A stretch of 64,000 nt of DNA. Origin: a virus. Its lineage: Duplodnaviria > Heunggongvirae > Uroviricota > Caudoviricetes. Numbering within the stretch: the stretch's first letter is position 1; every line of letters begins with the position of its first letter. Where the stretch lies: positions 33,228 to 97,227 of IMG/VR virus record IMGVR_UViG_3300045450_000131; one strand, 5' to 3'. Under the pieces are notes generated by a model that saw nothing but the letters and a program-made list of their open reading frames with translations, was not told where the DNA came from and searched no databases. The position numbers and the translations under genes were made by a program. Positions 980-21,546 of this stretch are shown here, piece after piece.

Positions 980-984
980 TTATT

Positions 985-1302: not shown

Positions 1303-1336
1303 ACGTAATTATAATACGCATTAAGGCTTTCGTACA

Positions 1337-1642
1337 TTAGTCTTTCATGCAAGTATAATACAGATCATCTGGAAAATCACCAAATTTTTTAACACATTCA
1401 TCTAGCCACTTATCAATTTCCGGGTCTCTAAATGGCGTGCGATGCATTATGAATGAACCGCTCTTATTCCAACGAGGGTCAATCTTTGAGCTTAACGTCC
1501 AATGCAAAACATCCTCTGATGTGTAATCTTCTGACGCGCTAAAAAGTCTAATTGATCCGGCTTCAGGTTCGTTGTAATCATCTATATCGCCAAAAAGCTT
1601 CATAATTTCTCCAAGAATTTCTGCGCATGCTTCCCAACACAC
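1337..1642 (-). CDS. hypothetical protein
   Basis: 101-aa ORF in minus-strand gene series. Confidence 0.4.
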   Translation of the reverse strand: MCWEACAEILGEIMKLFGDIDDYNEPEAGSIRLFSASEDYTSEDVLHWTLSSKIDPRWNKSGSFIMHRTPFRDPEIDKWLDECVKKFGDFPDDLYYTCMKD

Positions 1643-1953
1643 GACTTGCAGCTTACCTGCCAGCCACAGCCGTTTTACTAAACGGGAGAGAAACTGATTC
1701 TAATATAATTTTGTTATATTAAGCATGCCTGCAATATAACAGGGTTATTAGAACACAATAAACCCAACAGGGCGTGGCCTGTCATCAAGAAATTTCTAAC
1801 GTCAATTTCTGAACCCGACCAATATTATCGATAATTGATAAAACGCTTATTTGAAGGATAAGTCCTAGGAATTTATTTTGATCACTGAAGACATTTCACC
1901 ATGCGGGGATGGTACGCTGCAGGCGTTGTCTTCTAACCCATGATCAAAAATAG

Positions 1954-2029
1954 TGGAGCGGCATGCCGGGTTTGAACCGGCGACCTCGACTTTGGCAAAG
2001 TCGTGCTCTACCAACTGAGCTAATGCCGC
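1954..2029 (-). tRNA. tRNA-Gly (GCC)
   Basis: acceptor GCGGCAT/ATGCCGC, D arm GCTCAGTTGGTAGAGC, anticodon loop TTGCCAA, T-loop GGTTCAAACC. Confidence 0.7.
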
Positions 2030-2194
2030 ATAAATTTGAAGAAGCCTTCCACTTCACCGGTATAACTGAGCCTGTACAATTATACTTGATAACATTTGCC
2101 TCGATGAGGGCTTTATTTTGAGGAGGAAGTCTGATAGCCTTAGCTATCAGCGCCTTGTTACCACCCCTAGTTGATTATCAATCAACGCTTATTA

Positions 2195-2323
2195 TGGTGC
2201 GGATTACTAGGAATCGAACCTAGTGACCTCTCCTTGTAGAATGGATAACCATCTTAAAGCGGTTAATATAATAACAAAAGGAAAAGACGATGTTTTAGCG
2301 CTCTACCACTGAGCTAAATCCGC
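2195..2323 (-). ncRNA. tRNA gene interrupted by ~50-nt insertion between D arm and T arm (tRNA-like, identity unresolved)
   Basis: 5' half GCGGATT-TA-GCTCAGTGGTAGAGC and 3' half ...CTAGGTTCGATTCCTAG-AATCCGC-A-CCA pair perfectly as acceptor stem, but are separated by 49-50 nt containing the box GATGGTTATCC. Confidence 0.45.
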
Positions 2324-2332
2324 AATTTATTT

Positions 2333-2459
2333 TGGCTTCAACGGCTAGGAATCGAACCTAGCGACCACCCCATTAACAGTGGATAATCATTATAAGTCGG
2401 TCATATTACTGACAAAGTGCAATAACGACAAAGGTGCTCTACCACTGAGCTACGTCGAA
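2333..2459 (-). ncRNA. second interrupted tRNA gene (tRNA-like with ~50-nt insertion)
   Basis: 5' TTCGACG-TA-GCTCAGTGGTAGAGC ... insertion with AATGATTATCC box ... CTAGGTTCGATTCCTAG-CGTTGAA-G-CCA. Confidence 0.4.
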
Positions 2460-2466
2460 GTAAAAT

Positions 2467-2550
2467 TGGTGCCTCGGGTGAGATTCGAACTCACAACCCT
2501 CTCGGGGACGGCTTCTAAGACCGCTGCGTAAACCGTTCCGCCACCGAGGC
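2467..2550 (-). tRNA. tRNA-Leu (TAG), class II
   Basis: acceptor GCCTCGG/CCGAGGC, anticodon loop CTTAGAA, long variable arm, T-loop GTTCGAATC, CCA. Confidence 0.65.
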
Positions 2551-2551
2551 T

Positions 2552-2923
2552 TTAAATTCTTTTGAAGACTTCCTTATTATAAATTGTAAATGGCGAATTA
2601 GCCATTAGTTCTTCCTGACTGACCCAGCGAGATTGAATTCCTTCTTCAATGCCGCCTGGAATATCTCCGTCGTAATATGCAAAGAAGCATTGAGTATTAT
2701 AATCTACTTCACCTTTACATACTGCTTCGTAAATCAGGACTGGGCTATCTTTTAATGTAATGCCAGTTTCTTCCATTGTTTCACGAATAGCAGCTTGAAT
2801 GTGCGTTTCTCCTGGATCAACCTTTCCACCTGGCAAGCCAAGTTTATTGGAGTTACGGCGAGTTGTTGCAACCAGCTGGTTCGTAACAGGGTTAATGAGC
2901 AAAAGGCAAGCAGCTTGTTTCAT
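2552..2923 (-). CDS. Nudix (MutT-like) hydrolase
   Basis: Nudix box GGKVDPGETHIQAAIRETMEETGI; TAA stop at 2552; TATAAT promoter at 2946-2954. Confidence 0.7.
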   Translation of the reverse strand: MKQAACLLLINPVTNQLVATTRRNSNKLGLPGGKVDPGETHIQAAIRETMEETGITLKDSPVLIYEAVCKGEVDYNTQCFFAYYDGDIPGGIEEGIQSRWVSQEELMANSPFTIYNKEVFKRI

Positions 2924-2983
2924 ATCACTTTCATAATTTAAAGAATAATTATAACATCATTTTCAAACCATGTACACGTAATT

Positions 2984-3271
2984 TTAGTTGATGCGGTCAA
3001 ATTCCTCGTCGCTCATGCTCAAATAATCTAGTTCAGTATAGCCATTTCGATCAACGCCGTTACCGAAACAATAGTTCCCATCGGCGTCAAACGACGAATA
3101 ACCATAACGGTCAAAGCCTTCCTTATCGTAGTCATCAAACATGGTTTTAGTATCATACTCTACACCCGCCGCCTTCAATTCCATGTTCCACGGAGCAGGA
3201 CGTTGACCATAACAATTAAAGCCAAAGTCATCATTTTTAGGAAGATTGGGAGAATATTTTCCACGGCCCAT
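2984..3271 (-). CDS. hypothetical protein
   Basis: 95-aa ORF. Confidence 0.4.
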   Translation of the reverse strand: MGRGKYSPNLPKNDDFGFNCYGQRPAPWNMELKAAGVEYDTKTMFDDYDKEGFDRYGYSSFDADGNYCFGNGVDRNGYTELDYLSMSDEEFDRIN

Positions 3272-3335
3272 TTAATTACTCCTACCTTGTTTCAGTAGTA
3301 TGATTATATCAAGAATTAGCCATCATGTATATAAT

Positions 3336-3413
3336 TGGTGCGCAAGGAGGGATTCGAACCCACACTGTTCGCGTTCTAAGCGCGTTGTCTCCTACCAATT
3401 GCACTACTTGCGC
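3336..3413 (-). tRNA. atypical tRNA (anticodon TAG by loop CTTAGAA; D stem not resolvable)
   Basis: acceptor GCGCAAG/CTTGCGC, T-loop GGTTCGAATCC, CCA; short variable arm despite Leu-type anticodon. Confidence 0.4.
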
Positions 3414-3535
3414 ATTTAGTCATATAGCCTTTGTGGGCGACCATCTCCACAAAGCGGTACCAGGTCTTATAGACATAGACTGGCCATCCAGCGTTTTAAC
3501 ACCTAAGCTTACAAATAATGTAAGCACACTGCACT

Positions 3536-3620
3536 TGGTGCCTCCGGTCGGACTCGAACCGACACGCCTTGCGGCGCCAGAACCTAAATCTGGTGCGTCT
3601 ACCAATTCCGCCACAGAGGC
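3536..3620 (-). tRNA. tRNA-Leu (TAG), class II
   Basis: acceptor GCCTCTG/CGGAGGC, D arm GCGGAATTGGTAGACGC, anticodon loop TTTAGGT, variable arm CGCCGCAAGGCGTG. Confidence 0.65.
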
Positions 3621-3660
3621 AATATTAAATTGTAACAAATTATTTTGACTGACGACATAA

Positions 3661-3690
3661 GGCTGGTGCGTCTACCAATTCCGCCACGAC
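3661..3690 (-). repeat. duplicated 5' fragment of tRNA-Leu (GTGGCGGAATTGGTAGACGCACCAG)
   Basis: 3665-3690 repeats 3591-3620 nearly exactly. Confidence 0.6.
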
Positions 3691-3696
3691 CAATTT

Positions 3697-3767
3697 AATT
3701 GGAAGGAGGGGCTCGAACCCTCAATTTACCTGCTTGGGATAACCATCAATCTACGGTTACAAAATCT
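3697..3767 (-). ncRNA. tRNA-like element with T arm GAGGGTTCGAGCCCCTC and GATGGTTATCC box; not foldable as canonical tRNA
   Basis: T-loop present; no complementary acceptor 5' strand found. Confidence 0.3.
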
Positions 3768-3855
3768 TGGTGCATGTAGTAGGATTCGAACCTACTCACC
3801 CATAAAGGGAACGGATTTACAGTCCGCTTCTGCTCTCCAACTCAGACGTACATAC
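3768..3855 (-). tRNA. tRNA-Tyr (GTA), class II
   Basis: acceptor GTATGTA/TACATGC, anticodon stem GCGGA/TCCGT with loop CTGTAAA, long variable arm, T-loop GGTTCGAATCC, CCA. Confidence 0.6.
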
Positions 3856-4094
3856 AAAAATTCGGTGGTATTTTATTCAGCCTTACAGGCTTTATTTTTC
3901 AGCGGCTTAACGTATCCCTTAGACCTATCCCATTACCACTGGATAGAGGAGCCATGATACTGCATACGCGCACGTTGCAGTTACATAAAATGCATCAATT
4001 ACATGGTCATAGGAGTACCAGCCTGATGAATGATTCGAGGTCAATCATTTAGTAATATGATGCATATCTTGCTAATGGCGAAGTCGAAGAACTC

Positions 4095-4185
4095 CATCGT
4101 GGTGCATTGGTTCTTTACCCATATATGCCCCGGTTCCAGCATGCTACGTTCGACTATAGCAGCCCCCGTCCGGATAACCACAGAG
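4095..4185 (-). ncRNA. tRNA-like/structured RNA element carrying GTGGTTATCC box
   Basis: ends ...ACCAATGCACCA; no canonical cloverleaf. Confidence 0.25.
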
Positions 4186-4211
4186 TAATAAATTACTCCA
4201 GCAAAATTCGT

Positions 4212-4286
4212 TGGTGCCCCAGTACAGACTTGAACTGTAATCCCCGGGTTACAAAGCCGGTGCATCTCCATCTATGCTTCAAGGGC
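4212..4286 (-). tRNA. tRNA-Thr (TGT)
   Basis: acceptor GCCCTTG/CTGGGGC (one mismatch), D arm GCATAGATGGAGATGC, anticodon loop TTTGTAA, T-loop TACAGTTCAAGTCTGTA. Confidence 0.55.
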
Positions 4287-4299
4287 GAATAATCTAAAT

Positions 4300-4381
4300 T
4301 GGTTGCGGGTCGGAGAGTCAAACTCCGTATCTGTGGCTTATGAGACCACAATGGTTTATGTATTCGTTCCACTCACCCGCT
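4300..4381 (-). tRNA. tRNA with CAT anticodon (Met/Ile2 type), long D loop
   Basis: anticodon stem GTGGT/GCCAC with loop CTCATAA; T arm CGGAGTTTGACTCTCCG; acceptor AGCGGGT/ACCCGCA with 1-72 mismatch. Confidence 0.45.
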
Positions 4382-4396
4382 ATATTTTAACTTTGT

Positions 4397-4525
4397 GTGT
4401 TGGATTCGAACCAACGTCTCCGCATGCGGTCTTATGATTACCATAAACATCCATATGAATGCAAGTTGAATCGAACAACTTTCTGCCCTCGTGCTGCGTA
4501 CTATCCGCTATACTAACAACAAAGG
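4397..4525 (-). ncRNA. two degenerate tRNA-like elements
   Basis: two T-arm-like hairpins GTTGGTTCGAATCCAAC and AGTTGTTCGATTCAACT; a CATAA anticodon-like loop in the first; acceptor stems not identifiable. Confidence 0.3.
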
Positions 4526-4604
4526 TGGTAGCGCGGGGTGGATTCGAACCACCGATTTCGAGCTTATGAGACTCGCGGGGACGGCCAGACTCCCCTACCG
4601 CGCA
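4526..4604 (-). tRNA. tRNA-Met (CAT), possibly initiator-like (1-72 unpaired)
   Basis: acceptor TGCGCGG/CCGCGCT, D arm GGGG/CCCC, anticodon stem CGAGT/GCTCG with loop CTCATAA, T-loop GGTGGTTCGAATCCACC, CCA. Confidence 0.6.
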
Positions 4605-4865
4605 ATAATATCTGCGCCTTAGTTCTCAATTAAGACGGCTTGTAGCTTACCTACCAGCTTTTGCACATTCGTGTAACGTGAGCCATGTGCAACAAACGAT
4701 GAAGATTTGCAATATGGCATTTTAACCTATATCGACTGGCGAAATCATGGCCAAGTTTATTATGCATATAAACTAAAGCGTAACCTTAAGGTATAGGTTG
4801 ACTTTCCACCAATAACGCTTCGGTCTGCGGAGATACGACTCGGATTGCTCCTCGTCGTATATGAA

Positions 4866-4896
4866 TTATAACACGTTTTTAAGTTGCGTGTTATGT
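4866..4896 (-). promoter_or_regulatory. conserved hairpin (AACACG-N10-CGTGTT) fused to -10 TATAAT
   Basis: plus attataacacgtttttaagttgcgtgtt; near-identical copy at 16512-16541. Confidence 0.5.
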
Positions 4897-4901
4897 TTGT
4901 G

Positions 4902-4987
4902 CGGAGAGACTGGGAGTCGAACCCAGTGAGCCCGTAAAGGACCCTACAGATTAGCAATCTGCTGCATTACCGTCCTGCCCCCTCTCC
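4902..4987 (-). tRNA. tRNA-Ser (GCT), class II
   Basis: acceptor GGAGAGG/TCTCTCC, anticodon stem GCAGA/TCTGT with loop TTGCTAA, variable arm AGGGTCCTTTACGGGCTCA, T-loop CTGGGTTCGACTCCCAG. Confidence 0.6.
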
Positions 4988-4994
4988 ATTTATT

Positions 4995-5327
4995 TTATTG
5001 ACCCATGCGATCTTCAGCATCTTTAAACATATCATGATCTTCATCATCTTCCATGTCTTCTGGCTCAAAGTCATCTGGGTGAGCAAAGAAAGTTAGACGA
5101 TCATCAGAGCTATATGCTGCATGAAGCCCATTATTAATCTTCTTTAATTTCCAATCATCTGATAATCCTAATGCATCTGCTAATTTAGCGACAAGTGGGT
5201 TATCTGCGTCAATAGTTAAAGTATCGCCGAAGCCACCATTACCTGCTGGTGTGTGATGTGATTCTTCACTTACTTCGGTTTCTACCTGTGGCTTGCGTGA
5301 AGCAAGTAAGTCTGCTAGGAATGTCAT
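4995..5327 (-). CDS. hypothetical acidic protein
   Basis: 110-aa ORF with Asp/Glu-rich C-terminus. Confidence 0.45.
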   Translation of the reverse strand: MTFLADLLASRKPQVETEVSEESHHTPAGNGGFGDTLTIDADNPLVAKLADALGLSDDWKLKKINNGLHAAYSSDDRLTFFAHPDDFEPEDMEDDEDHDMFKDAEDRMGQ

Positions 5328-5367
5328 ATTAATCCTCGTTATAAAACTTCTATTTATAACGAATTTT

Positions 5368-5441
5368 TGGTCAGAGTGGTCGGAATCGAACCGACACTAC
5401 AAGGTTCCAAACCTCGGCGACTACCACTATCATACACCCTG
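5368..5441 (-). tRNA. tRNA-Pro (TGG)
   Basis: C1-G72 acceptor (CAGGGTG/CACTCTG), anticodon stem CGAGG/CCTTG with loop TTTGGAA, T-loop GTCGGTTCGATTCCGAC, CCA. Confidence 0.6.
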
Positions 5442-5699
5442 ATAATTTGGTTGGAGACAACTTACTCAAGGTTATCTTATCGGCACCAAGATACCGGATA
5501 TTTTTCTAACTGAGAAACATCATAAACCCGTCTAGTTTTATTCAATGAGACTTGACCTCATGGTAATAAAATTTAGAGTCTTTTATACCAGAGACTAAGT
5601 AATATAAGAACAAAATAATGTAAGTGGGGTTAGTTATTCCATATAGATAACCCACAAACTACGGTTCTTTAAATTAATGTGTAAACAAATTAGCATAAT

Positions 5700-5812
5700 T
5701 GGGTTTAGACCTGGGAATCGAACCCAACTTACTTCCTATTATAGAAGTCGTGCAACCAAACACCTGGTCCGCAGGATGGAGCGGATAATCAATTACTTTC
5801 GGTTTACATATT
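5700..5812 (-). ncRNA. tRNA-like element with GATTATCC box (3' end GTCTAAACCCA, T arm TTGGGTTCGATTCCCAG)
   Basis: no matching acceptor 5' strand; internal hairpin ACTTC...GAAGT. Confidence 0.3.
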
Positions 5813-5905
5813 TGGCGGAGACGAAGGGATTCGAACCCTTGGACCGCCAACAAGGCGGTCTCCACCTTTCCAAGATGGCGCATTTGACCACTCTGCCACG
5901 TCTCC
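5813..5905 (-). tRNA. tRNA-Ser (GGA), class II
   Basis: acceptor GGAGACG/CGTCTCC, anticodon stem CCATC/GGTGG with loop TTGGAAA, variable hairpin AGACCGCCTTGTTGGCGGTC, T-loop AAGGGTTCGAATCCCTT, CCA. Confidence 0.65.
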
Positions 5906-6053
5906 AAATTTATCTTAGCCGGCGCCAAAGCACTTTTTAGCTGTATAATCATGCGCTTTACAAAGCCACTCTGGTTCATCCCAAGGGAATGACATCAATG
6001 GATGGATAATTGCATTGTGAATGAATTTCCAAAAATAAAACTTTGCATTACGT

Positions 6054-6293
6054 TCAGGATATTCCATATGTGCCTTTATATTCTACTCTATAGAGGTCTT
6101 CGTGGTGTTGATATGAAACATTGCCGTTATCCCATAACATCACAATGACATCTTCCTTTTCCTTTTGGAGGTAAGGACTAGTTTCACCCCTTTTTACGAG
6201 GTGTGTTATATGACCTGGAGTGCCAATATAACTTATCAGCTTGTCACCAACTTTAAGTTGATCAAATGGAACTTCACTAAGTTTCATACACAC
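6054..6293 (-). CDS. hypothetical protein
   Basis: 79-aa ORF between tRNAs. Confidence 0.35.
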   Translation of the reverse strand: MCMKLSEVPFDQLKVGDKLISYIGTPGHITHLVKRGETSPYLQKEKEDVIVMLWDNGNVSYQHHEDLYRVEYKGTYGIS

Positions 6294-6304
6294 CTTTTAT
6301 AAAT

Positions 6305-6383
6305 TGGTCTCCCATGTTTGATTCGAACAAACGTTATTCCTCATCCCAAATGAGGTGCCATAACCAGACTAGGCGAATGAGAG
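6305..6383 (-). tRNA. tRNA-Pro (TGG), second copy
   Basis: C1-G72 acceptor CTCTCAT/ATGGGAG, anticodon stem CCTCA/TGAGG with loop TTTGGGA, T-loop GTTTGTTCGAATCAAAC, CCA. Confidence 0.55.
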
Positions 6384-6387
6384 TAAT

Positions 6388-6463
6388 GTGGCGCTCCAGC
6401 ACTGAATCGAACAGTGATTCACGGGTTACAAAGCCGTAGTAATAGCCGTTATACTACAAGAGC
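6388..6463 (-). tRNA. tRNA-Thr (TGT), second copy
   Basis: acceptor GCTCTTG/CTGGAGC, anticodon loop TTTGTAA, T-loop CACTGTTCGATTCAGTG, CCA. Confidence 0.5.
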
Positions 6464-6591
6464 AAAAATCTAAACCAGTCTCTCAAATAACGTTACGCAT
6501 ACTGGAGGAAGGTAACTCTTAACAAGATTGAGCTCTTGTCTGCTCATTATAAGACCGTACGTCAGAACAGAAATTGAGTACGTGAATTTTT

Positions 6592-6668
6592 TGGTACCGC
6601 TCGTCGGACTCGAACCGACAGAATCTACTTTTTGAGAGTAGCATGTATACCAATTCCATCAGAGCGGC
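6592..6668 (-). tRNA. class-I tRNA with anticodon CAA (Leu-type anticodon, short variable arm)
   Basis: acceptor GCCGCTC/GAGCGGT, anticodon stem CTACT/AGTAG with loop CTCAAAA, 5-nt variable loop, T-loop GTCGGTTCGAGTCCGAC, CCA. Confidence 0.5.
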
Positions 6669-6703
6669 ATATGAGTGTATTATACTATACATTCAATGAA
6701 ATT

Positions 6704-6781
6704 TGGTAACCCCTCTCAGATTCGAACTGAGAAACAACAGTGTTTAAAACTGTTTGCGATTACCAATTAGCATAAGGGGAC
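6704..6781 (-). tRNA. class-I tRNA with anticodon TAA (Leu-type anticodon, short variable arm)
   Basis: anticodon stem ACAGT/ACTGT with loop TTTAAAC; T-loop CTCAGTTCGAATCTGAG; 3' AGGGGTT-A-CCA. Confidence 0.5.
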
Positions 6782-6819
6782 ATATTGTAACAAAAGGTGA
6801 AATCAAGTAGTTTGCCCTG

Positions 6820-6900
6820 CACCAGCTGCATGATAGGAATCGAACCTACCCGGTTTTTATTTCCAATTAAAAGTAGATAATTGACTTCGAACGGTTACAA
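6820..6900 (-). ncRNA. tRNA-like fragment (T arm GTAGGTTCGATTCCTAT) without identifiable 5' half
   Basis: T-loop motif only. Confidence 0.25.
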
Positions 6901-6904
6901 ATAG

Positions 6905-6978
6905 TGGAGCGGAATATCGGAATCGAACCGATGACATCTGCTTGGAAGGCAGGGGTTTTACCATTAAACTAATCCCGC
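6905..6978 (-). tRNA. tRNA-Gly (TCC)
   Basis: acceptor GCGGGAT/ATTCCGC, D arm GTTTAATGGTAAAAC, anticodon loop CTTCCAA, T-loop ATCGGTTCGATTCCGAT, CCA. Confidence 0.65.
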
Positions 6979-6984
6979 ATTATA

Positions 6985-7126
6985 TGGAGGGGCTGGTAAG
7001 AATCGAACTTACGCAGGCTGCTTGAAGATAATCATTCACTTCCGGTTGAGGTCAAATACTCAACTAATTTTGTAAACGAGAAGTTCCTTTCGGAACGCGG
7101 CTGTCCTACCACTAGACAACAGCCCC
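6985..7126 (-). ncRNA. interrupted tRNA gene with ~65-nt insertion (5' GGGGCTG... / 3' ...CAGCCCC-T-CCA)
   Basis: perfect 7-bp acceptor, D arm GTCTAGTGGTAGGAC, T arm GTAAGTTCGATTCTTAC; insertion contains AATGATTATC box. Confidence 0.45.
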
Positions 7127-7133
7127 TATAATA

Positions 7134-7209
7134 TGGTGGAGGATGTCGGGATCGAACCGACGACCTGAGCCTTGCAAAGACCCTGCTCTCCCAGCTGAGC
7201 TAAACCCCC
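7134..7209 (-). tRNA. tRNA-Ala (TGC)
   Basis: G3:T70 wobble in acceptor, D arm GCTCAGCTGGGAGAGC, anticodon loop TTTGCAA, T-loop GTCGGTTCGATCCCGAC, CCA. Confidence 0.65.
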
Positions 7210-7357
7210 ATAATATTGTTTTAGCTTTCTCATCCAGTCACCTCACTGGTCGGTATAAAGAGGTTGTTTACACAATTTACACGGCTGATTCTTCCGCTAC
7301 TCTATACTCGATGACCGCATTAACCCTAGTCACTTCGGAAAACAATATTGTTATTCT

Positions 7358-7430
7358 TGGTGCCGACGGATGGAGTTGAACCACCATTTCTCTTGAGTTC
7401 AAGAGCGTTCTAACGTCGAGCTACGTCGAC
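7358..7430 (-). ncRNA. tRNA-like gene with aberrant anticodon arm (CTCTTGAACTCAAGAG hairpin)
   Basis: acceptor GTCGACG/CGTCGGC, T-loop GGTGGTTCAACTCCATC, CCA encoded; anticodon arm replaced by 6-bp/4-nt hairpin. Confidence 0.35.
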
Positions 7431-7577
7431 ATGTTATTCTTGGTGGACCGTGACGGTAACGCTCCGTCTCTACCGCAGTGCAAGTGCAGCGCCTAGCCTT
7501 CTAGGCAGCCCAGTATTTTGGCTGTGTAAGCGAGTTCTTATAAAAGACGAACTCTTGCAATTAGCCAAAATGTAACC

Positions 7578-7654
7578 TGGTGCGGGTGGCGAGACTCGAA
7601 CTCGCAGATTACGGTGTTTAAGACCGTTGCCTATACCAATTCGGCTACACCCGC
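7578..7654 (-). tRNA. class-I tRNA with anticodon TAA (second copy)
   Basis: acceptor GCGGGTG/CACCCGC, D arm GCCGAATTGGTATAGGC, anticodon stem ACGGT/ACCGT with loop CTTAAAC, T-loop GCGAGTTCGAGTCTCGC, CCA. Confidence 0.55.
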
Positions 7655-8151
7655 ATTATAATTTATTATATCACAACTGGTACATGTGGAGATCATTTCA
7701 ATCGTCTTTCAACGACCCATTATTATAGGAGTTACCGGTACCATTAATCTTCTGGCTCACATGTATTATCTGGAGGAACATCATGGTAACGCTCCATCAC
7801 CGGCTCATCACCGATGGTATTGTTTTCAAGGCAATTTCTAGGACTTCCTAGTCGATATTCCAGAATTCGAGGAGACGGTGAGTTGTCAAGCTCACATGGT
7901 TTCATTACAGTGTGTTATTGTGCTACAAGCCTCAGAGGTTAATTACTCCTCAGTCAACGGCAGGGGGTATCTAGCCCATGGACTCGTTTGTGTGACCTTA
8001 TGCCATCCAACGATCTTTATTAATGGCTACAAGATGCTCACTAATATTGACCTGCACTACACTCCTGTAACTAATAACAGCCTACGTACTTGCTTACCGT
8101 AGCACCTTTTCCCCCACAACAAGGGCGTTATCAGTCACGTCTCAAATATGA

Positions 8152-8238
8152 TGGTGATGGTGATAGGATTCGAACCTATTAAGCCATGAGGCAACGGGGT
8201 TACAGCCCGCCCTAACACTCCAACGTTAGCGCACCACC
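8152..8238 (-). tRNA. tRNA-Tyr (GTA), class II, second copy
   Basis: acceptor GGTGGTG/CACCATC, D arm CTAACGTTGGAGTGTTAG, anticodon loop CTGTAAC, 14-nt variable arm, T-loop ATAGGTTCGAATCCTAT, CCA. Confidence 0.5.
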
Positions 8239-8250
8239 AAAATTCTAAAG

Positions 8251-8350
8251 TATGATTGGATGGACTTGAACCATCGGCCAGATTTAATCAGCAGCATATT
8301 GGCCCTTTGCCGTGAGCTGATCTGCGCTCTACCAACTGAGCTACAACTAT
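8251..8350 (-). ncRNA. interrupted tRNA gene (anticodon region carries a ~36-nt insertion closed by CAGAT/ATCTG)
   Basis: 5' ATAGTTG-TA-GCTCAGTTGGTAGAGC, 3' GATGGTTCAAGTCCATC-CAATCAT-A. Confidence 0.4.
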
Positions 8351-8468
8351 ACCATTTCAATGGACTAACATCGAAGAATCGAACTTCTTTGCGTAATAAA
8401 CTAATATTCTCTACAGCAACAATACCGTAGGACTTAACCAAAGTCAAATATTAATCCATTGAAATGGT
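8351..8468. repeat. 14-bp inverted repeat (ACCATTTCAATGGA / TCCATTGAAATGGT) enclosing a T-arm-only tRNA remnant
   Basis: arms at 8351-8364 and 8455-8468; inner hairpin GAAGTTCGATTCTTC. Confidence 0.5.
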
Positions 8469-8540
8469 ACCTCCGACCGGGTTCGAACCGATGACATTCT
8501 GCGTGTAAGGCAGACGCTCTACCAACTGAGCTACAGAGGC
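8465..8540 (-). tRNA. tRNA-Val (TAC)
   Basis: acceptor GCCTCTG/CGGAGGT, D arm GCTCAGTTGGTAGAGC, anticodon stem TCTGC/GCAGA with loop CTTACAC, T-loop ATCGGTTCGAACCCGGT, CCA. Confidence 0.7.
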
Positions 8541-14154: not shown

Positions 14155-14700
14155 TTAGTTTCCTTTGATAATATTAATGAGGTTGTTACCGAGTTTCTGC
14201 AAGTTTTTAAACTTAATTTTGAACGAGGTGGATTCAATACCACCAAACATACTTGCATTTGCATGCAATTCGGCTAGAGCGGTTAGGAGCAGGGCGGGGG
14301 CCAAGTCCATGTGCTTATAGCTGTCTGCCTCCGACGGCTTCATGATGTGCATATCCATATCATGCAAGATATACTTTCCAATCATGTCATCTCCACCATA
14401 AGCTGCCCAGATTGCAGCCGAAATACGAGCATGGTCTGGGAAATGCTGCTTACCATTTTCATCACGTGAAATGCAAAATGGTTTGCCGCAGTCATGGTAG
14501 ATATGGTACTGTTCCATCACTTCTGGAGATGGACACAGAGGCAGCAAAAAGTTTAAATCAAACCAGGTTGGAAGTCTCCATTCTAGTTTGCGTTCACCAA
14601 TTAAGTCCTTGTAGTGCAGGGAAACACTCTCACCGTGCTCAAGGATCGTTTGACTTTGCGTCTGATTACATTCAGACATCTTCTGTCGCAGCTCATTCAA
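14155..14700 (-). CDS. HD-domain phosphohydrolase
   Basis: motifs H...HD (YHIYHDCGK), HFPDH, later D; 181 aa. Confidence 0.55.
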   Translation of the reverse strand: MNELRQKMSECNQTQSQTILEHGESVSLHYKDLIGERKLEWRLPTWFDLNFLLPLCPSPEVMEQYHIYHDCGKPFCISRDENGKQHFPDHARISAAIWAAYGGDDMIGKYILHDMDMHIMKPSEADSYKHMDLAPALLLTALAELHANASMFGGIESTSFKIKFKNLQKLGNNLINIIKGN

Positions 14701-14754
14701 TTTAACCTATTTCATAATTTCCCTTTCGTAACCGCTATTTGCGATCTAATGCTA

Positions 14755-15402
14755 TTATAATTCGTTTGGTGTAAGATGGCTAAAGTGTTCCATTTGATAC
14801 TTCTTTAGCCACTCATATGCATTTACGGCTTCTTGTTCCCACCTTGGAGTATGATAGTCGTGAGTTTCTTTATTCCAATACTTTGTTTCTTCACCTGAAA
14901 ACGGCTTTACTTTATATGTCCGGAGTGCCTCAATCACTTCTAAGATGCTCTTCCCCTCCCTAAAGTAACCACCAATTTTACTTGCTTCGTGCTTACCAAG
15001 CCCTTTTATGGTATGAACACCGGCAAATTGCTCAGCATAGCACTTAATACATGAGGCAGCAACGCATGTGCAATCACCCCCGTGCACGTCATCTTCCAGT
15101 GCAGGAATGATATATGATAACTGGCGTTCAACTTCCTTATCTAGACCACATTTGCCATCCTCATTCTCGTCTGCATAATAGTACTTCGTATCTAATCTTT
15201 TAGTTAGTAATTCAAGTAATTCTTCAGTGGTTCTAGGTTTAATTTTTTCATTATACCAATCGTGATGTGTAATATCAAAATATGCTTCTGACATTAGCTC
15301 TTCCATTTGATTGATTTTGACCTTATAATAAAGTTCTTTCTTCTCAATATCAGTTAAAAGAATTTTACTTGCGAGTGGGTTTTCTGTATAAATGATCTTC
15401 AT
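14755..15402 (-). CDS. hypothetical protein (Cys-rich segment GGDCTCVAASCIKC)
   Basis: 215-aa ORF. Confidence 0.45.
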   Translation of the reverse strand: MKIIYTENPLASKILLTDIEKKELYYKVKINQMEELMSEAYFDITHHDWYNEKIKPRTTEELLELLTKRLDTKYYYADENEDGKCGLDKEVERQLSYIIPALEDDVHGGDCTCVAASCIKCYAEQFAGVHTIKGLGKHEASKIGGYFREGKSILEVIEALRTYKVKPFSGEETKYWNKETHDYHTPRWEQEAVNAYEWLKKYQMEHFSHLTPNEL

Positions 15403-15794
15403 TCTATATCTCCTGTCAAATTATCAATGATTTCCTGCAATCTAACTAGCTCTTTTAATTTTTGATTTCTATAATAGCTTCGTCGTTGATTAAAGTGTGG
15501 AAGTGCTTCTCTTCTAAATTCTAATTTTAGCTTATTCATATCCGTCTCTTTAAGCAGCTCAAAGTCAACGCCAGTATATATGTCTCTATCTTGCCAATAC
15601 GAAGCTCTTTCATATAGCTCAAGGGTGTGAGTTTTATAATCTGCCTTAACATAATCAGCTCCTTGAATATGCCAATATTGCGATGGAATTTCATTGTAGC
15701 CAGATAGTCCACACGACTTTGCAAGTTCTTGTATTACTTCATTCATGGCATCTATCTGCTTACATGCAAGTTCTTCTTGTTCATCTAGTGTCAT
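15399..15794 (-). CDS. hypothetical protein (start at MTLDEQ, GAGGA RBS)
   Basis: internal Met avoids overlap with upstream gene; stop TAA of upstream at 15799. Confidence 0.4.
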   Translation of the reverse strand: MTLDEQEELACKQIDAMNEVIQELAKSCGLSGYNEIPSQYWHIQGADYVKADYKTHTLELYERASYWQDRDIYTGVDFELLKETDMNKLKLEFRREALPHFNQRRSYYRNQKLKELVRLQEIIDNLTGDIE

Positions 15795-15798
15795 AATA

Positions 15799-16047
15799 TT
15801 AGTCCTCAAAGAAGTCTGATAGAGACTGGCTTGTTTCTTCCTTTTCCCATTCTCCACACCCTACATAGCGCGACCACTTTGCATAGATATATCCCTCGCT
15901 GAGCCACATATCTTGTAATGCAAACTCATTTTCCTGGCGGAAAGTAGGTATAGGCTTATTAAGCTTTTCTTTTGGGATATTATTAATTAGACTCTGATAA
16001 AGTTCAGAGATGCTCTCAGCCATAGTTAAATTGATTTTAATATCCAT
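15799..16047 (-). CDS. hypothetical protein
   Basis: strong RBS AAGGAGAATAAG-ATG. Confidence 0.5.
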   Translation of the reverse strand: MDIKINLTMAESISELYQSLINNIPKEKLNKPIPTFRQENEFALQDMWLSEGYIYAKWSRYVGCGEWEKEETSQSLSDFFED

Positions 16048-16048
16048 C

Positions 16049-16390
16049 TTATTCTCCTTGCGTGGGCAGACGCCACAGTTGCAGGCCCTTCAGTAAGTGA
16101 CGGTCTTGCTCAGTCAATAGGCACGAAATTGCAGTTAGACCCCAATCTAAGTATGGCTCGTGGAATTCAGCCGTTTTAATATGGTGGTGATGCAGCTTAG
16201 CCTTCAGCTTATTAAGCTGGTCTTTGTTCTTGACTTTAAGGTGAATATATGATGGGTGATGATCGGCAGGGCGACCGTATTGATAAGCATATTCAATTGC
16301 GGCATGGCCGGCTTGAATTGCCTGTTGAGCGAGTGGGAGATCGCTGCGAGAGATTGTATAGAGGTATGTTTTGGAAATCTACAGAGACAT
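16049..16390 (-). CDS. Pth2-family peptidyl-tRNA hydrolase with in-frame amber (TAG) at codon 4
   Basis: ATG at 16390 with AGGA RBS; reading MSL-TAG-ISKTYLY...AQQAIQAGHAAIEYAYQYG...HLKVKNKDQLNKLKAKLHH...GLTAISCLLTEQD, whose key blocks match PTH2 motifs as recalled from memory (human PTRH2-type); stop TAA overlaps the next gene's RBS. Absent from the ORF track because of the TAG at 16379-16381. Confidence 0.6.
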
Positions 16391-16511
16391 GATATAAAAT
16401 CCTTTTTAAGTTAAGATGAATGGCTTTCCACCACATCTGGGAATATGTCGTTATCACATATCCTCTACCATACGTTTATAGCACGCTCATGGCTTAGCAT
16501 TTGTTAAATTA

Positions 16512-16878: not shown

Positions 16879-16954
16879 TGGTGCGAACGCCGTGACTCGA
16901 ACACGGAACCAACAAATTATGAGTTTGCTGCTCTAACCATTGAGCTACATTCGC
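16879..16954 (-). tRNA. tRNA-Met (CAT)
   Basis: acceptor GCGAATG/CGTTCGC, D arm GCTCAATGGTTAGAGC, anticodon loop CTCATAA, T-loop CCGTGTTCGAGTCACGG, CCA. Confidence 0.65.
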
Positions 16955-16959
16955 TTTAT

Positions 16960-17181
16960 TTATCGCTTTAAAAAGTAACCACCTTCATGACTGGCTTGAC
17001 ACGTAACGCACCGAATTGCAGATGGATATGCTTGGCGCCTCGCTTGAGGAATGTCCTCACCGCAATCATCGCATTCTTTCTGTCCATTACCATCCATATT
17101 ATATCTTGCTAGAGATAGGCGATCATTCAGAGTTTGTTGGATTTGTTCCTGGAAATCGTCTTGTGCTCCCCAACCCTTCAT
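16960..17181 (-). CDS. DksA/TraR-type C4 zinc-finger protein
   Basis: CDDCGEDIP...CVTCQ four-Cys motif at C-terminus of 73-aa protein. Confidence 0.5.
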   Translation of the reverse strand: MKGWGAQDDFQEQIQQTLNDRLSLARYNMDGNGQKECDDCGEDIPQARRQAYPSAIRCVTCQASHEGGYFLKR

Positions 17182-18186: not shown

Positions 18187-18849
18187 TTACCAATTCAAAT
18201 AGTCTATTGCATCTTGCAGCCCAAAACGCCACTCAACCTTTCCATTGACTGTTCTACGACCAAAGTGGTGCCCTGGGAAATATGCTCTAAGATCATTTAG
18301 CAGCTTAAACTGTTCACCGGCTCGATCATCAACGTTTAAAAATTTATCTTTGTAAAGTTCAACTAGCTCACGTAACTTGTAGTCTTGCAGAGAATGTTCA
18401 ATTGGTAACACATGAATTATAAAAAGTGCAAATGTAGAAAGAATTCGAGTGTGCAGACATTGATAAGAGGCAATACTTTTGTCGATCTTGTTGTAAATGT
18501 TTGCGTAAGTTTCAAGAGGCCAGTCATTCTGGTCAAAATGATAATCGTGATCTTGCTCCGCAAATAGCTGAATGGTTTGCAGCTCACCTTCAGTCAGATT
18601 AAATTTGCTTTCATCTTCAAAATATTGCCAGAGCCTGCTGAGATACCAAGCAACTAATTCATCATTATCCAAAATTAAAGCATCATGCTCGCCTGATCCA
18701 CCACCAACAACTAAATTGTATTGATTTAGAGGGTTATCGTCATTAGTGTCATTTACCATACCCTTAATCGACTCTTGCATTACCCAATAAACAGGGATGC
18801 CAAAATAGGACGCCACTGCGGCATGATCGATGCAATCGATAGCACTCAT
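18187..18849 (-). CDS. hypothetical protein (start at MSAIDC to clear the tRNA-Glu gene)
   Basis: ORF-track start at 18969 would run through tRNAs; internal ATG at 18849. Confidence 0.45.
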   Translation of the reverse strand: MSAIDCIDHAAVASYFGIPVYWVMQESIKGMVNDTNDDNPLNQYNLVVGGGSGEHDALILDNDELVAWYLSRLWQYFEDESKFNLTEGELQTIQLFAEQDHDYHFDQNDWPLETYANIYNKIDKSIASYQCLHTRILSTFALFIIHVLPIEHSLQDYKLRELVELYKDKFLNVDDRAGEQFKLLNDLRAYFPGHHFGRRTVNGKVEWRFGLQDAIDYLNW

Positions 18850-18865
18850 AATTTGCTTTCTTAGA

Positions 18866-18940
18866 TGGAGCCTCTGACAGGAATCGAACCCGTATTCACG
18901 CTTTAGAAGAGCGTTGTCTTCTCCATTAGACGACAGAGGC
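18866..18940 (-). tRNA. tRNA-Glu (TTC)
   Basis: acceptor GCCTCTG/CAGAGGC, anticodon stem ACGCT/AGCGT with loop CTTCTAA, T-loop ACGGGTTCGATTCCTGT, CCA. Confidence 0.65.
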
Positions 18941-18947
18941 AGATAGG

Positions 18948-19023
18948 TGGTGCGCCCGGAGGGATTCAAACCCCCGACAAACCGGGTAGAAGCCGGTGAC
19001 TCTATTCGCTGAGCTACGGACGC
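18948..19023 (-). tRNA. tRNA-Arg (TCT)
   Basis: acceptor GCGTCCG/CGGGCGC, D arm GCTCAGCGAATAGAGT, anticodon stem ACCGG/CCGGT with loop CTTCTAC, T-loop GGGGGTTTGAATCCCTC, CCA. Confidence 0.6.
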
Positions 19024-19043: not shown

Positions 19044-19118
19044 TGGCGACTTCACCGGGGCTCGAACCCGGAACCTTAGGATTTAGAGTCCTCTGCTCTA
19101 CCATTGAGCTATAAAGTC
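19044..19118 (-). tRNA. putative amber-suppressor tRNA (anticodon CTA)
   Basis: acceptor GACTTTA/TGAAGTC, D arm GCTCAATGGTAGAGC, anticodon stem GAGGA/TCCTA with loop CTCTAAA (C32 U33 CUA A37), T-loop CCGGGTTCGAGCCCCGG, CCA. Confidence 0.5.
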
Positions 19119-19124
19119 TGAATT

Positions 19125-19198
19125 TGGTGGCCTATGCGAGAATCAAACTCGCTTCCTGAAATTTAGAGTTTCGTACTTTATCATTAAGCTAATAGGCC
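19125..19198 (-). tRNA. second putative suppressor tRNA (anticodon CTA), A19/U56 variant
   Basis: acceptor GGCCTAT/ATAGGCC, anticodon stem CGAAA/TTTCA with loop CTCTAAA, T arm GCGAGTTTGATTCTCGC, CCA. Confidence 0.4.
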
Positions 19199-20235: not shown

Positions 20236-20695
20236 AAACAGCTTTCTAAAGCAGCATTGGGTCCTAAAAGGACCCAATGCTGAATGATTAAACATCTAGA
20301 ATTTTCTTAACAAGGATCTTACTCCTTGGCTAGACCTTAGGCGGCCATTAGCATTTGTGAGTCATTTGCATTTCTCGTTTTTGCTATATTAACGTCATTC
20401 GCCTGACGAGCGCCTTACTAAGTTACTATTCTGTCGGTCGATAGCCAGATCACCCCCATCAAAAGAACTCTTAGGTTACGTAGTTCCGAGTTTTTCAGAT
20501 TAACTATCTGATACTCTGTCAAAGTCTACTGCAGCTTTTACAACTTAACTAGTTGGTGCTTACCTAAAACCATTTTACTTGCTTGAATGTGCCGCGAATA
20601 ATTCAAACTTTCAAATACAGAATTCTTTTGGTGGAGGTGGCGGGAGTTGAACCCGCGTGTCGCCAGTATTTCTCAAAGAAGGTTTACGCTGTTTT
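20236..20695 (-). ncRNA. ssrA: circularly permuted (two-piece) tmRNA, ssrA-like
   Basis: order on minus strand: TATAAT promoter (20701-20712); acceptor piece ending GACACGCGGGTTCAACTCCCGCCACCTCCACCA (3' end 20629), near-identical to the E. coli tmRNA 3' end; ~170-nt spacer; coding piece starting GGGGGTGATCTGGCTATCGACC at 20457, whose first 7 nt pair with CACCTCC including G3:U70; tag frame GCA AAT GAC TCA CAA ATG CTA ATG GCC GCC TAA = ANDSQMLMAA (compare E. coli ANDENYALAA); terminal hairpin GCATTGGGTCC-TTTTA-GGACCCAATGC at 20254-20280. Confidence 0.6.
20337..20369 (-). other. tmRNA tag reading frame (ANDSQMLMAA-stop)
   Basis: resume codon GCA at 20369-20367, stop TAA at 20339-20337; an upstream in-frame GCA at 20384 would give a longer tag. 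Confidence 0.5.
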
Positions 20696-20700
20696 TAATT

Positions 20701-20715
20701 TATATGGTAATTATA
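20701..20715 (-). promoter_or_regulatory. -10 element (GTTATAATT) upstream of tmRNA acceptor piece
   Basis: same aattataacatcatttt motif as at 2946. Confidence 0.45.
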
Positions 20716-20718
20716 ACA

Positions 20719-21546
20719 TCATTTTGGGCTGTGGCCCCAAATTTTTAAACTTAAAAGCTTACGGGTTGGATTGCCATCTTTGTCCTTCATCGGGCCAGCA
20801 GCACCCAACATTCGAGAGACGAAGCTGACTTGTTTCCCGGCCCACTTCCACATTTGCGGTGTCCAGTCTTCAACTTTAGTCTTCTTCATCTTAATAATCC
20901 AGTTTGCACTTTCTACACCAGACGAGATGCCCAATTTTGCTGCTTCTTTTCGTTGCAACCCGGGGTGATCCTTCGGGTCTTTTTTGCCCTTGGCAGTTTG
21001 CTCCTCTTTGAACTTCTCAAGTGAGTCAGCACTCATATTAATTAGCTCTTTCCACCTCTTATATAATTCCTTCTGCTTTTCATCTAGAGTTTCTTTGGCT
21101 TCTAGAATTACTTCTAGTTCTTCATCAATCTTACCCTTAATAAATGCATTGACTCTACCCATTGCCCACGCACTTGAATTGGTGCCAGGAGGGTGGCTCT
21201 TTCTCCATGCCGCCAATCCCTTGTTATACACCTGCTTTAACTTAGATAATGACTTACCACTCTCTTCTGCTTTCTTCTTAAGAGTGTCATCAAGCTTCTT
21301 ATCTTCGGTTAGCTCTTCAGTTTCTAATTCTACTTCACCTAAGTTAGAGATGAAGTCCTTAAATGAAAGGTTCTCAGCTAAGCCGGCTCTACGTTTAACG
21401 ATGCCATTAACATAAGCCCAGAAACGCGGGCTCTTTTTCTTGAACTTTTTCTTAGCTTCATCCTCTGCTTCAGCCCACCATTTTTCAACGTGGTCGACGG
21501 ATTTGCCGGTTTTTTCGGCGTAGGACTTTACAACATTATTAGGCAT
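20719..21546 (-). CDS. hypothetical Lys/Glu-rich protein (start MPNNVV with GGAG RBS)
   Basis: 275 aa, coiled-coil-like charged repeats. Confidence 0.45.
   Translation of the reverse strand: MPNNVVKSYAEKTGKSVDHVEKWWAEAEDEAKKKFKKKSPRFWAYVNGIVKRRAGLAENLSFKDFISNLGEVELETEELTEDKKLDDTLKKKAEESGKSLSKLKQVYNKGLAAWRKSHPPGTNSSAWAMGRVNAFIKGKIDEELEVILEAKETLDEKQKELYKRWKELINMSADSLEKFKEEQTAKGKKDPKDHPGLQRKEAAKLGISSGVESANWIIKMKKTKVEDWTPQMWKWAGKQVSFVSRMLGAAGPMKDKDGNPTRKLLSLKIWGHSPK

Follow-up and report, generated by a model that had tools for sequence, protein, structure and literature searches.

Organization of the Locus

The window analyzed here is a stretch of 64,000 nucleotides of DNA from a virus of the class Caudoviricetes (IMG/VR record IMGVR_UViG_3300045450_000131, positions 33,228 to 97,227), and its subject is a pair of neighboring minus-strand genes in which an in-frame stop codon stands almost directly behind the start codon. 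The upstream gene encodes a protein predicted to share the fold of Pth2 peptidyl-tRNA hydrolases, and the downstream gene a putative HD-domain protein. An earlier sequence-only reading of the window had pointed to the first of these, describing AGGA-N9-ATG TCT CTG TAG followed by 109 codons within a stretch devoid of called open reading frames (ORFs). Direct reading of the minus strand agrees (AAGGA-N9-ATG; Table 1). Behind the TAG the sequence continues ATT TCC AAA ACA, and 109 sense codons run up to a TAA at 16051-16049 that overlaps the AAGGAG ribosome-binding site (RBS) of the next gene (ATG at 16047). The first 87 codons after the TAG are free of in-frame ATG, GTG, and TTG, which explains why the gene is absent from the ORF list. 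A near-identity DNA search of the locus against 50,697 phage records gave no match, and the window is therefore without a close sequenced relative.

The same reading had placed two tRNAs with a CUA anticodon at 19044-19198, and both were recovered by ARAGORN and Rfam. They lie 2.7 kb upstream of the Pth2-like gene on the same strand, and each has the form expected of a suppressor, with a canonical cloverleaf, a 7-nt anticodon loop, U33, and a purine at position 37. In total ARAGORN lists 24 tRNAs and one transfer-messenger RNA (tmRNA) for the window. The early stop codon together with the base that follows it is hereafter termed the gate.

Table 1. Positions of the gated genes and associated RNA features in the window.
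Feature	Position	Strand	Details
Shine-Dalgarno (SD) sequence AAGGA	16400..16404	-	9 nt before ATG of Pth2-like gene; read directly
Gate leader, ATG TCT CTG (start and two sense codons)	16382..16390	-	ATG at 16390-16388
In-frame amber TAG (codon 4), next base A; the gate	16379..16381	-	Read directly
Predicted Pth2-fold protein body, 109 codons	16049..16378	-	Begins ISKTYLYTISRSD; ends with TAA at 16051-16049
Putative HD-domain protein, gated	14155..14715	-	RBS AAGGGAA; ATG AAA at 14715-14710; TAG at 14709-14707; 183 codons; stop at 14157-14155
DNA motif AGCATTAG-N5-CAAATAG	14735..14753	-	Just upstream of the HD-like RBS; same place in many loci
Candidate suppressor tRNA, anticodon CUA	19125..19198	-	Loop CUCUAAA; encoded CCA; discriminator A; ARAGORN; Rfam tRNA 58.9 bits
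Second candidate suppressor tRNA, anticodon CUA	19044..19118	-	Loop CUCUAAA; encoded CCA; discriminator G; ARAGORN; Rfam 67.9 bits
Permuted (two-piece) tmRNA	20246..20722	-	Tag ANDSQMLMAA; tag ORF ends TAA; ARAGORN

Conservation and Context of the Gate

Homologues of the protein encoded behind the TAG were found in 133 metagenomic sequences at 58-77% identity. Related loci were taken from IMG/VR (21), from metagenomes (80) and from the corresponding regions of isolated phages, and the DNA at each 5′ end was inspected. The gate layout, in which an SD motif and a start codon are followed by 0-5 sense codons and an in-frame stop leads into a conserved KTYLYxISRRD body, is present in 84 of 110 usable loci, corresponding to 67 distinct sequences with 35-80% protein identity. 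Such recurrence is far beyond chance. In nearly all of the 67 an SD-like motif lies 4-14 nt before the start, and 65 use TAG as the stop against two with TGA. The leader itself is not conserved: it holds no sense codon in 15 sequences, which read ATG TAG directly, one in seven, two in 32, three in 11 and five in two. The median distance from the stop to the first in-frame ATG, GTG, or TTG in gated loci is 55 codons. The sequence-only reading had asked whether relatives carry TAG or a sense codon at this position; the stop is kept throughout the identity range given above, isolated phages included. Its suggestion that the gene might be a fresh amber pseudogene is thereby ruled out.

The arrangement is present in at least 12 isolated phages. 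The 5′ end of the Pth2-like gene reads ATG TCT CAC TAG ATT in Yersinia fHe-Yen9-04, ATG ACG CAC TAG AAT in Serratia BF, ATG GCT CAC TAG AAT in Xanthomonas XbC2, ATG TTG TAG ATT in Ralstonia RsoM2USA, ATG CTG TAG AAC in Salmonella Arash and ATG ACT TAG ATT in Acinetobacter ME3, and further gated phages are CM1, Xoo-sp13, XacN1, pT24 and two uncultured phages of 595 and 635 kb. Most of these isolates have GenBank records that either omit the Pth2-like gene or truncate it. Where database relatives have "Q" at the gate position, their DNA reads TAG, the glutamine being an artefact of gene calling under code 15. For this reason the notion that the Q of P0002, P0004, P0011, and P0024 reflects a CAG-to-TAG mutation or glutamine insertion was rejected. 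Two loci may carry an ochre-type gate, namely the Pth2-like gene of L067, a contig of 1765 nt (ATG AAA AAG TCA TAA GTA AAA ACG TAT), and the HD-like gene of L095 (...CAC ACG TAA GTG CTC).

The base 3′ of the stop is A in 55 gates, G in 12 and a pyrimidine in none. Ordinary TAG terminators of the same loci are followed by a purine in 24 of 51 cases, against 67 of 67 gates (p = 7e-13, ancestry uncorrected). Bossi, as well as Miller and Albertini, reportedly found in 1983 that a 3′ purine favors amber suppression. No stimulatory RNA structure was detected downstream of the 67 gates (mean z = -0.36, with 3% at z < -2). The loci thus combine a conserved in-frame stop, conserved coding sequence 3′ of it and a non-random context, as is characteristic of programmed read-through.

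Suppressor tRNAs and Covariation With the Stop Codon

In gated loci the suppressor tRNA lies on the same strand as the gated gene, usually 150-2800 nt and often 150-500 nt upstream. Covariation between gate and anticodon was assessed in those distinct gated loci whose flank measures 3.5 kb or more. A TAG gate is accompanied by tRNA-CUA in 25 of them, 24 identified by ARAGORN and one lineage (L007/L008) by Rfam alone, and both loci with a TGA gate (L006 and L015) have tRNA-UCA and no tRNA-CUA, so that stop and anticodon are never mismatched (Fisher p = 0.0028). The two TGA-gated proteins are only 59% identical and the nearest relatives of each, at 72-76%, are of the TAG type, which argues for two independent switches from TAG to TGA; in L006 the change affects both gated genes. 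Three distant homologues with 32-35% identity (L106, L107, and L112) have a plain ATG start, and no suppressor tRNA was found in their 16-kb loci. This covariation of TAG with tRNA-CUA and of TGA with tRNA-UCA strongly supports the suppression option that the sequence-only reading had offered.

The tRNA detected by Rfam alone is degenerate (L008:9747-9818, equal to that of L007), having a weak anticodon stem, an aberrant T-loop and a score of 43 bits. It lies 180 nt upstream of a TAG-gated gene and may still be functional or may represent a suppressor in the course of being lost. The single tRNA-CUA of RsoM2USA (L113-L119) is located at 55744-55821, inside a tRNA cluster spanning 45-112 kb. 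Atu_ph07, a phage with tRNA-UCA, was not recovered by tblastn with either protein. When the window tRNA at 19125..19198 was aligned and clustered with 64 other phage suppressor tRNAs, the second window tRNA (19044..19118) adjoined the UCA suppressors of L006 and L015 in the dendrogram, and this clustering allowed no assignment of amino-acid identity from sequence. The sense codons found at "equivalent" positions of HD-like leaders (CAA, AAA, and AAG) were tried as a clue to the amino acid and set aside as unreliable, lying as they do inside a conserved DNA motif.

The HD-Like Gene and Its Association With the Pth2-Like Gene

The sequence-only reading was right that the gate is real, but it missed both the gated HD-like gene at 14155-14715 and the use of the device throughout the family. 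At its 5′ end this second gene reads AAGGGAA-ATT-ATG AAA TAG GTT AAA TTG, and the called ORF covers 14155-14700. The HD-like gene is the conserved downstream neighbor of the Pth2-like gene in nearly every locus, and most of its relatives show the same succession of RBS, start, leader, stop and purine, with TGA as the stop in the tRNA-UCA phage L006. Both genes are gated in 36 distinct loci; the Pth2-like gene is gated and the HD-like gene has a plain start in seven, the Pth2-like gene is ungated or fused and the HD-like gene gated in another seven, and in none are both clearly ungated. The lineage L017-19, which at first seemed ungated, has a 12-codon leader before the TAG of the HD-like gene. 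The residues encoded 3′ of the HD gate (xxF[E/D]EL..AM) line up with the N-terminal ends of ungated homologues (L001, L022-24, L028, and L029), and in an AlphaFold 2 (AF2) model with a predicted local distance difference test score (pLDDT) of 97.6, a helix predicted with confidence spans residues 2-12, immediately behind the TAG. Alignment and helix together argue that the genuine protein of the HD-like gene is the read-through product.

The two genes are also found fused, in both orders. HD precedes the Pth2-like domain in XacN1, Stenotrophomonas CM1 and Xoo-sp13, and follows it in Tenacibaculum pT24, and each fusion has a single gate at its 5′ end (ATG AAG TAG ACC; ATG AAG AAG TAG AAC; ATG AAA TAG ATA). 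Given these independent fusions in both orders and the constant adjacency or fusion of the two genes, the Pth2-like and HD-like proteins probably form one functional unit that would act on tRNA 3′ ends. In P0230 (317 aa), encoded on a contig of 1.01 Mb, a canonical Pth2 is joined to an HD-like domain; in P0230 and P0225 the G-K motif of Pth2 is intact and the contig is apparently cellular, and P0235, annotated in Bosea massiliensis, is a homologue that stands alone. A cellular origin and function of the pair are thus possible.

The DNA motif upstream of the HD-like RBS (Table 1) has a second copy in the window at 45516-45534 (minus strand), upstream of another gene, and in some relatives it lies inside an open leader. 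It is possibly a phage promoter or operator. A third gated gene was considered at 15399-15884 (ATG...ATG TAG GGT GTG) and rejected, its leader lying inside the frame of the upstream gene and a GTG or ATG start being available at once.

Restriction to Two Gene Families Under the Standard Code

Under the standard code (code 11) a simple greedy ORF map leaves the window 86% coding, with 79 ORFs ending in TAA, 27 in TGA and four in TAG (110 ORFs). Two of the TAG terminators are credible, those of the minus-strand genes at 35887-36408 and 50530-50700. The former has a TAA eight codons past its TAG, and an active suppressor would sometimes extend both. Reading TAG as sense adds two convincing genes to the window and no more. 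Gains in ORF length on treating one stop as sense were uninformative, being obtained with each of the three stops.

An unbiased scan of 910 kb of loci, in which an RBS, a start, at most seven codons, any stop and an ORF of at least 60 codons were required and the downstream proteins were clustered, returned the same two families. The Pth2-like cluster holds 49 loci (47 TAG, 2 TGA) and the HD-like cluster 34 (33 TAG, 1 TGA); all other clusters have at most four members, mostly antisense copies of one phage. The complete genome of RsoM2USA was assembled (343,806 bp) and encodes one tRNA-CUA. The two gene families provide its only convincing gated ORFs, other hits to the pattern being about as frequent as in the TAA and TGA controls, and internal stops flanked by long open stretches show no enrichment of TAG (TAG 20, TGA 18, TAA 39).

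Predicted Folds of the Two Proteins

The sequence-only reading had named the first product a Pth2 on the basis of sequence motifs; the relationship rests on the fold instead. In the Pfam search that it had proposed (PTH2, PF01981) the window protein scores 21.1 bits (E = 3.8e-4), below the gathering cut-off of 23, and eight of 72 family members match at E < 0.01. A profile search of the family against PDB sequences detected no relationship to Pth2, nor did hhalign against a canonical Pth2, and fold comparison alone revealed it. The AF2 model (pLDDT 93.8) was compared with the PDB by Foldseek, and 13 of the top 14 matches belong to the Pth2 family (probability 1.0, template modeling score 0.63-0.77). 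The matched structures include 1wn2, 1q7s (Bit1), 2zv3, 3erj, 1rlk, and 1xty, and the matched proteins are PH1539, human Bit1/PTRH2, MJ0051, AF2095, TA0108, and the Sulfolobus Pth2; the fourteenth, 2gax, is of unknown function. As judged from the model, the window protein has the Pth2 fold.

In a MAFFT alignment with canonical Pth2 sequences (BF_0391, XbC2_393, and the N-terminus of P0230), the canonical P-x-G-K...Q-x-G-H aligns with P-L-A-Q-Q...Q-A-G-H, so that by alignment the lysine appears replaced by a nearly invariant glutamine, and the canonical V-x-D aligns with F-H-E, an apparent replacement of aspartate by an invariant glutamate. We take the lysine and aspartate to be the catalytic residues of Sulfolobus Pth2 (K18 and D86). 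The product is thus at most a putative peptidyl-tRNA hydrolase: the Pth2 identification of the sequence-only reading holds for the fold and falters on the sub-threshold Pfam score and the loss of the catalytic lysine. In Eneladus-type phages a canonical Pth2 without a gate is encoded in addition, as a gene of its own, e.g., BF_0391. Canonical-looking, ungated Pth2 genes of 142-143 aa with the G-K motif are present in XbC2 (L023:59-487) and BF (L024:646-1077), some 5.5 kb upstream of the gated gene, so that the gated protein cannot simply be taken for the Pth of these phages.

The window HD-like protein has no Pfam match, and 14 of 64 close relatives match PF01966 (best E = 2e-5). Invariant in the family are H71-D72 of "YHDCGK," H88, H92, and D116/D118. 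Its best fold matches are 3wfo-3wfs, entitled "tRNA processing enzyme," followed by the HD domains of PgpH, PhnZ, and YfbR; glycyl-tRNA synthetase structures (8ie2 and 7eiv) are found lower in the list. The structures 3wfo-3wfs are presumably those of tRNA nucleotidyltransferase, the CCA-adding enzyme. Their folds suggest that both proteins probably point to the acceptor end of tRNA.

A Proposed Start-Proximal Gate Operated by Suppressor tRNA

We consider it likely that the TAG is a programmed, start-proximal gate of a two-gene module, translation of which depends on the phage suppressor tRNA. Ribosomes would initiate at the SD-preceded ATG and reach the amber codon after a leader of 1-6 residues, and would pass into the protein only when the phage tRNA with anticodon CUA decodes the amber in competition with release factor 1 (RF1). 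The neighboring HD-domain gene would use the same device. The decoding step itself we infer from conservation, covariation of stop and anticodon, context, the lack of another start codon and linkage. The 3′ purine and the start-adjacent position may make read-through efficient at the gate, with ordinary terminators largely spared. With the stop so close to the start, failed read-through would cost a peptide of just 1-13 residues, and in a non-conserved leader the identity of the inserted residue would be irrelevant. Termination on very short nascent chains is inefficient, and this would be expected to favor the suppressor tRNA.

Several points weigh against this proposal. In three gated lineages with long flanks (L058, L020/L093, and L098) a suppressor tRNA is missing from the surrounding 8-10 kb, and the gated genes of RsoM2USA are separated by 13 kb from its single tRNA-CUA, so tight linkage of tRNA and gate is common and not obligatory. 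The covariation involves only two TGA/UCA lineages, one of which (L015) has GTG directly after its TGA, a possible coupled start, and the counts leave shared ancestry uncorrected. In the HD-like gene a conserved internal ATG lies 9-13 codons beyond the gate, and a slightly shorter protein could be made from it without suppression. Phages with tRNA-UCA end about 35% of their ordinary genes in TGA, and those with tRNA-CUA end 6.7% in TAG; a suppressible stop is therefore still a terminator, and suppression must be partial or strongly dependent on context. Avoidance of the suppressible stop as a terminator, weak for TAG in the CUA phages and not seen for TGA in the UCA phages, was accordingly left out of the evidence. 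Finally, the biochemical activities of both proteins are read from predicted folds, and the Pth2-like protein lacks the canonical lysine.

Some of these points would be accounted for if the stop were merely leaky, attenuating expression to the low level permitted by near-cognate host tRNAs while the phage suppressors serve another end. The suppressible stop still terminates ordinary genes, suppressor tRNAs are retained where only one of the two genes has a gate (L017-19, L087, and L089), and three gated lineages have no suppressor tRNA nearby. A leaky stop gives no reason, however, for two independent switches from TAG to TGA to match a change from CUA to UCA, in one case in both genes, nor for the location of the tRNA, which in most loci shares the strand and precedes the gene by 150-2800 nt. 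Distant ungated homologues lack suppressor tRNAs, and in a complete genome the gated pair are the only candidate targets for one. We regard this explanation as unlikely.

A second possibility, which we judge improbable, is that the leader is a tiny upstream ORF and that the enzyme arises independently of the suppressor, by termination-reinitiation or by non-AUG initiation at the codon that comes next. The codon after the stop is ATT or ATC, both weak initiation codons, in 38 of 67 gates, and the GTG of L015 and the internal ATG of the HD-like gene could serve likewise. In 28 of the 67, however, the next codon is AAC, GTT, ACA, AAT, ACC, AGC, GTC, or GTA, none of which is a start, and in the Pth2-like gene the next in-frame start is tens of codons away. 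Reinitiation also leaves unpredicted the match of stop and anticodon, the tight linkage to the tRNA and the presence of the genome's rarest stop at both gates.

Reassignment of TAG to glutamine (code 15), genome-wide or in a block as in crAss-like and Lak phages, is very improbable: the phage does encode tRNA-CUA, TAG is a rare terminator (4 of 110 ORFs) and gene callers have translated relatives under code 15, but coding density under the standard code makes no case for it, two genes of the window alone need TAG read-through, internal TAG in RsoM2USA is no commoner than TGA (20 against 18), and TAG remains in use as a terminator. Equally little credence can be given to pyrrolysine or selenocysteine, as the ARAGORN labels "Pyl" and "SeC" merely track the anticodon of what are ordinary cloverleaves of 74-77 nt scoring 59-68 bits with the general model, and the stop stands in a non-conserved leader in which residue identity is irrelevant, no search having been aimed at pyl or sel genes or a SECIS element; or to sequencing or assembly error, since over 60 independent assemblies and the finished genomes of isolates share the feature. 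A nonsense mutation fresh to this phage can be dismissed, for although a TAG at codon 4 with no start downstream would inactivate an ordinary gene, the stop recurs at this position in 67 distinct relatives, some with as little as about 35% identity, and in at least 12 isolated phages, the ORF body is intact and conserved, the second gene has the same feature, and no close relative with a sense codon was found, each database "Q" being TAG in the DNA.

Returning to the gate operated by a suppressor tRNA, three purposes can be hypothesized. Our first preference is a feedback or dosing loop, in which the amount of tRNA-end enzyme is coupled to suppressor tRNA activity; the second is an interlock that withholds potentially toxic tRNA-end enzymes until the phage tRNAs are functional; the third is a clean-up capacity, shared with the tmRNA and scaled to the damage that read-through by the suppressor might cause. 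A tRNA 150-500 nt upstream is probably co-transcribed with the gated gene, and a circuit responding to tRNA state (feedback or interlock) is therefore favored over a simple transcriptional timer. In its fullest form, which we advance tentatively and would not yet bet on, the suppressor tRNA is a signaling element: its state (processed, CCA-intact, charged, and able to outcompete RF1) would be read at the gate and would set the level of two enzymes of the tRNA 3′ end, closing the loop. If this is true, many jumbo phages possess a natural translational switch operated by a tRNA. The need to open the gate probably explains why these phages carry stop-reading tRNAs.

Transfer-Messenger RNA and Neighboring Features

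The module suggested by these loci consists of one or more suppressor tRNAs and two predicted enzymes whose translation would depend on them, often preceded by a phage tmRNA. The permuted tmRNA of the window is placed at 20337-20690 by Rfam (RF04321; 94.1 bits against a gathering score of 47). Among 31 distinct gated loci with enough flank, 16 have a tmRNA 1.4-4.3 kb upstream on the same strand, and this conserved synteny lends support to the link between tRNA-CUA, the Pth2-like gene and tmRNA that the sequence-only reading had envisaged. The tag ORFs of these tmRNAs end in TAA (27) or TGA (4) and never in TAG. The "tmRNA" that ARAGORN reports in RsoM2USA (331545-331953) is probably spurious, its tag being implausible.

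Between the suppressor tRNAs and the gated Pth2-like gene lies a minus-strand gene at 16960-17181 for a DksA/TraR-type C4 zinc-finger protein of 73 aa (Pfam PF01258, E = 5.7e-13), adjoining a tRNA-Met at 16879-16954. The called 260-aa ORF at 18187-18969 (minus strand) crosses two tRNA-Arg(UCU) genes at 18866-19023, and its real start is therefore further downstream, near MSAIDCIDHAA. The minus-strand region 893-8540 is a dense array of 19 tRNA genes and small ORFs, including five tRNAs for Leu, two for Pro and two for Thr. An extra tRNA at 7361-7430 was found by Rfam (33.4 bits) and is unlisted by ARAGORN.

Relation to Known Systems

The gate has partial counterparts in several well-known systems. 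The gene for release factor 2, prfB, is autoregulated through an early in-frame UGA and a +1 frameshift. There, as here, an early stop stands in a gene of the translation apparatus and synthesis would depend on a competition at that stop, but prfB shifts frame and senses its own product, whereas at the gate the frame is kept, the competitor would be a dedicated suppressor tRNA, and feedback is hypothesized. Programmed read-through in the RNA phage Qbeta (A1 protein) and in retroviruses uses host tRNAs at low efficiency and adds a C-terminal extension. These systems too read through a stop in a defined context to obtain a functional protein; in contrast, the gate would need a virus-encoded cognate suppressor for any protein to be made at all. 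It would thus be a new use of read-through, an on/off control at the first codons that has co-evolved with a viral tRNA, and neither a C-terminal extension nor a reassigned code. The bar minigenes of phage lambda are stand-alone ORFs of 2-4 codons whose products are Pth substrates and which are toxic in pth mutants. The gates likewise begin with a mini-ORF, here ahead of a Pth-fold gene, but this is a resemblance only, since bar involves no read-through into a downstream protein. In 2007 Anderson, Voigt and Arkin are said to have built a synthetic AND gate from the supD tRNA and a T7 RNA polymerase gene carrying amber codons. In both cases output would need mRNA and suppressor tRNA together; unlike the engineered gate, the present one is natural and conserved, and its stop lies at the very start of the ORF. 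The leaders and tRNAs described here are possible natural parts for tRNA-controlled expression in synthetic biology.

For annotation the gates constitute a blind spot, since the gene is missing or truncated in most GenBank records and protein databases render the stop as glutamine. They also join two uncharacterized families, a Lys-to-Gln variant of Pth2 and an HD protein related to tRNA nucleotidyltransferase, as a putative tRNA-directed unit. Neither start-proximal gates nor this gene pair were found described in the full-text literature, in a search that covered few subscription journals, and a prior description is possible.

Suppressor tRNAs have been reported in the jumbo phages XacN1 (PMC5852040), RsoM2USA (PMC8504454), and Atu_ph07 (PMC6102473). 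No target gene could be identified for that of XacN1 (PMC5852040), and for the other two many possible targets were inferred from the frequency of stop triplets (PMC8504454, PMC6102473); a jumbo-phage survey of 2026 discusses suppressor tRNAs for alternative codes only. The present loci belong to the same group of phages with the same tRNAs, and gated genes have now been found in both XacN1 and RsoM2USA. Probable targets can thus be named for the orphan suppressor tRNAs of jumbo phages that use the standard code, which addresses the question raised for XacN1 (PMC5852040), and these targets occur in isolated, manipulable phages (fHe-Yen9-04, BF, RsoM2USA, ME3, XacN1, and Arash).

Recoding of stops with the phage's own suppressor tRNAs has been described for crAss-like, Lak and other gut phages that use code 15 or code 4, and the papers concerned propose that dependence on the tRNA serves to control expression (bioRxiv 10.1101/2021.08.26.457843; PMC7886860; PMC9523058). 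The present phages would resemble them in that a phage tRNA-CUA or tRNA-UCA decodes in-frame stops of phage genes. They differ in keeping the standard code and in confining such stops to two genes, where the stop falls in a non-conserved leader, among the first 1-13 codons, and the protein itself is never interrupted. The targets, moreover, are predicted tRNA-related enzymes encoded beside the tRNA gene itself, rather than late or lysis genes.

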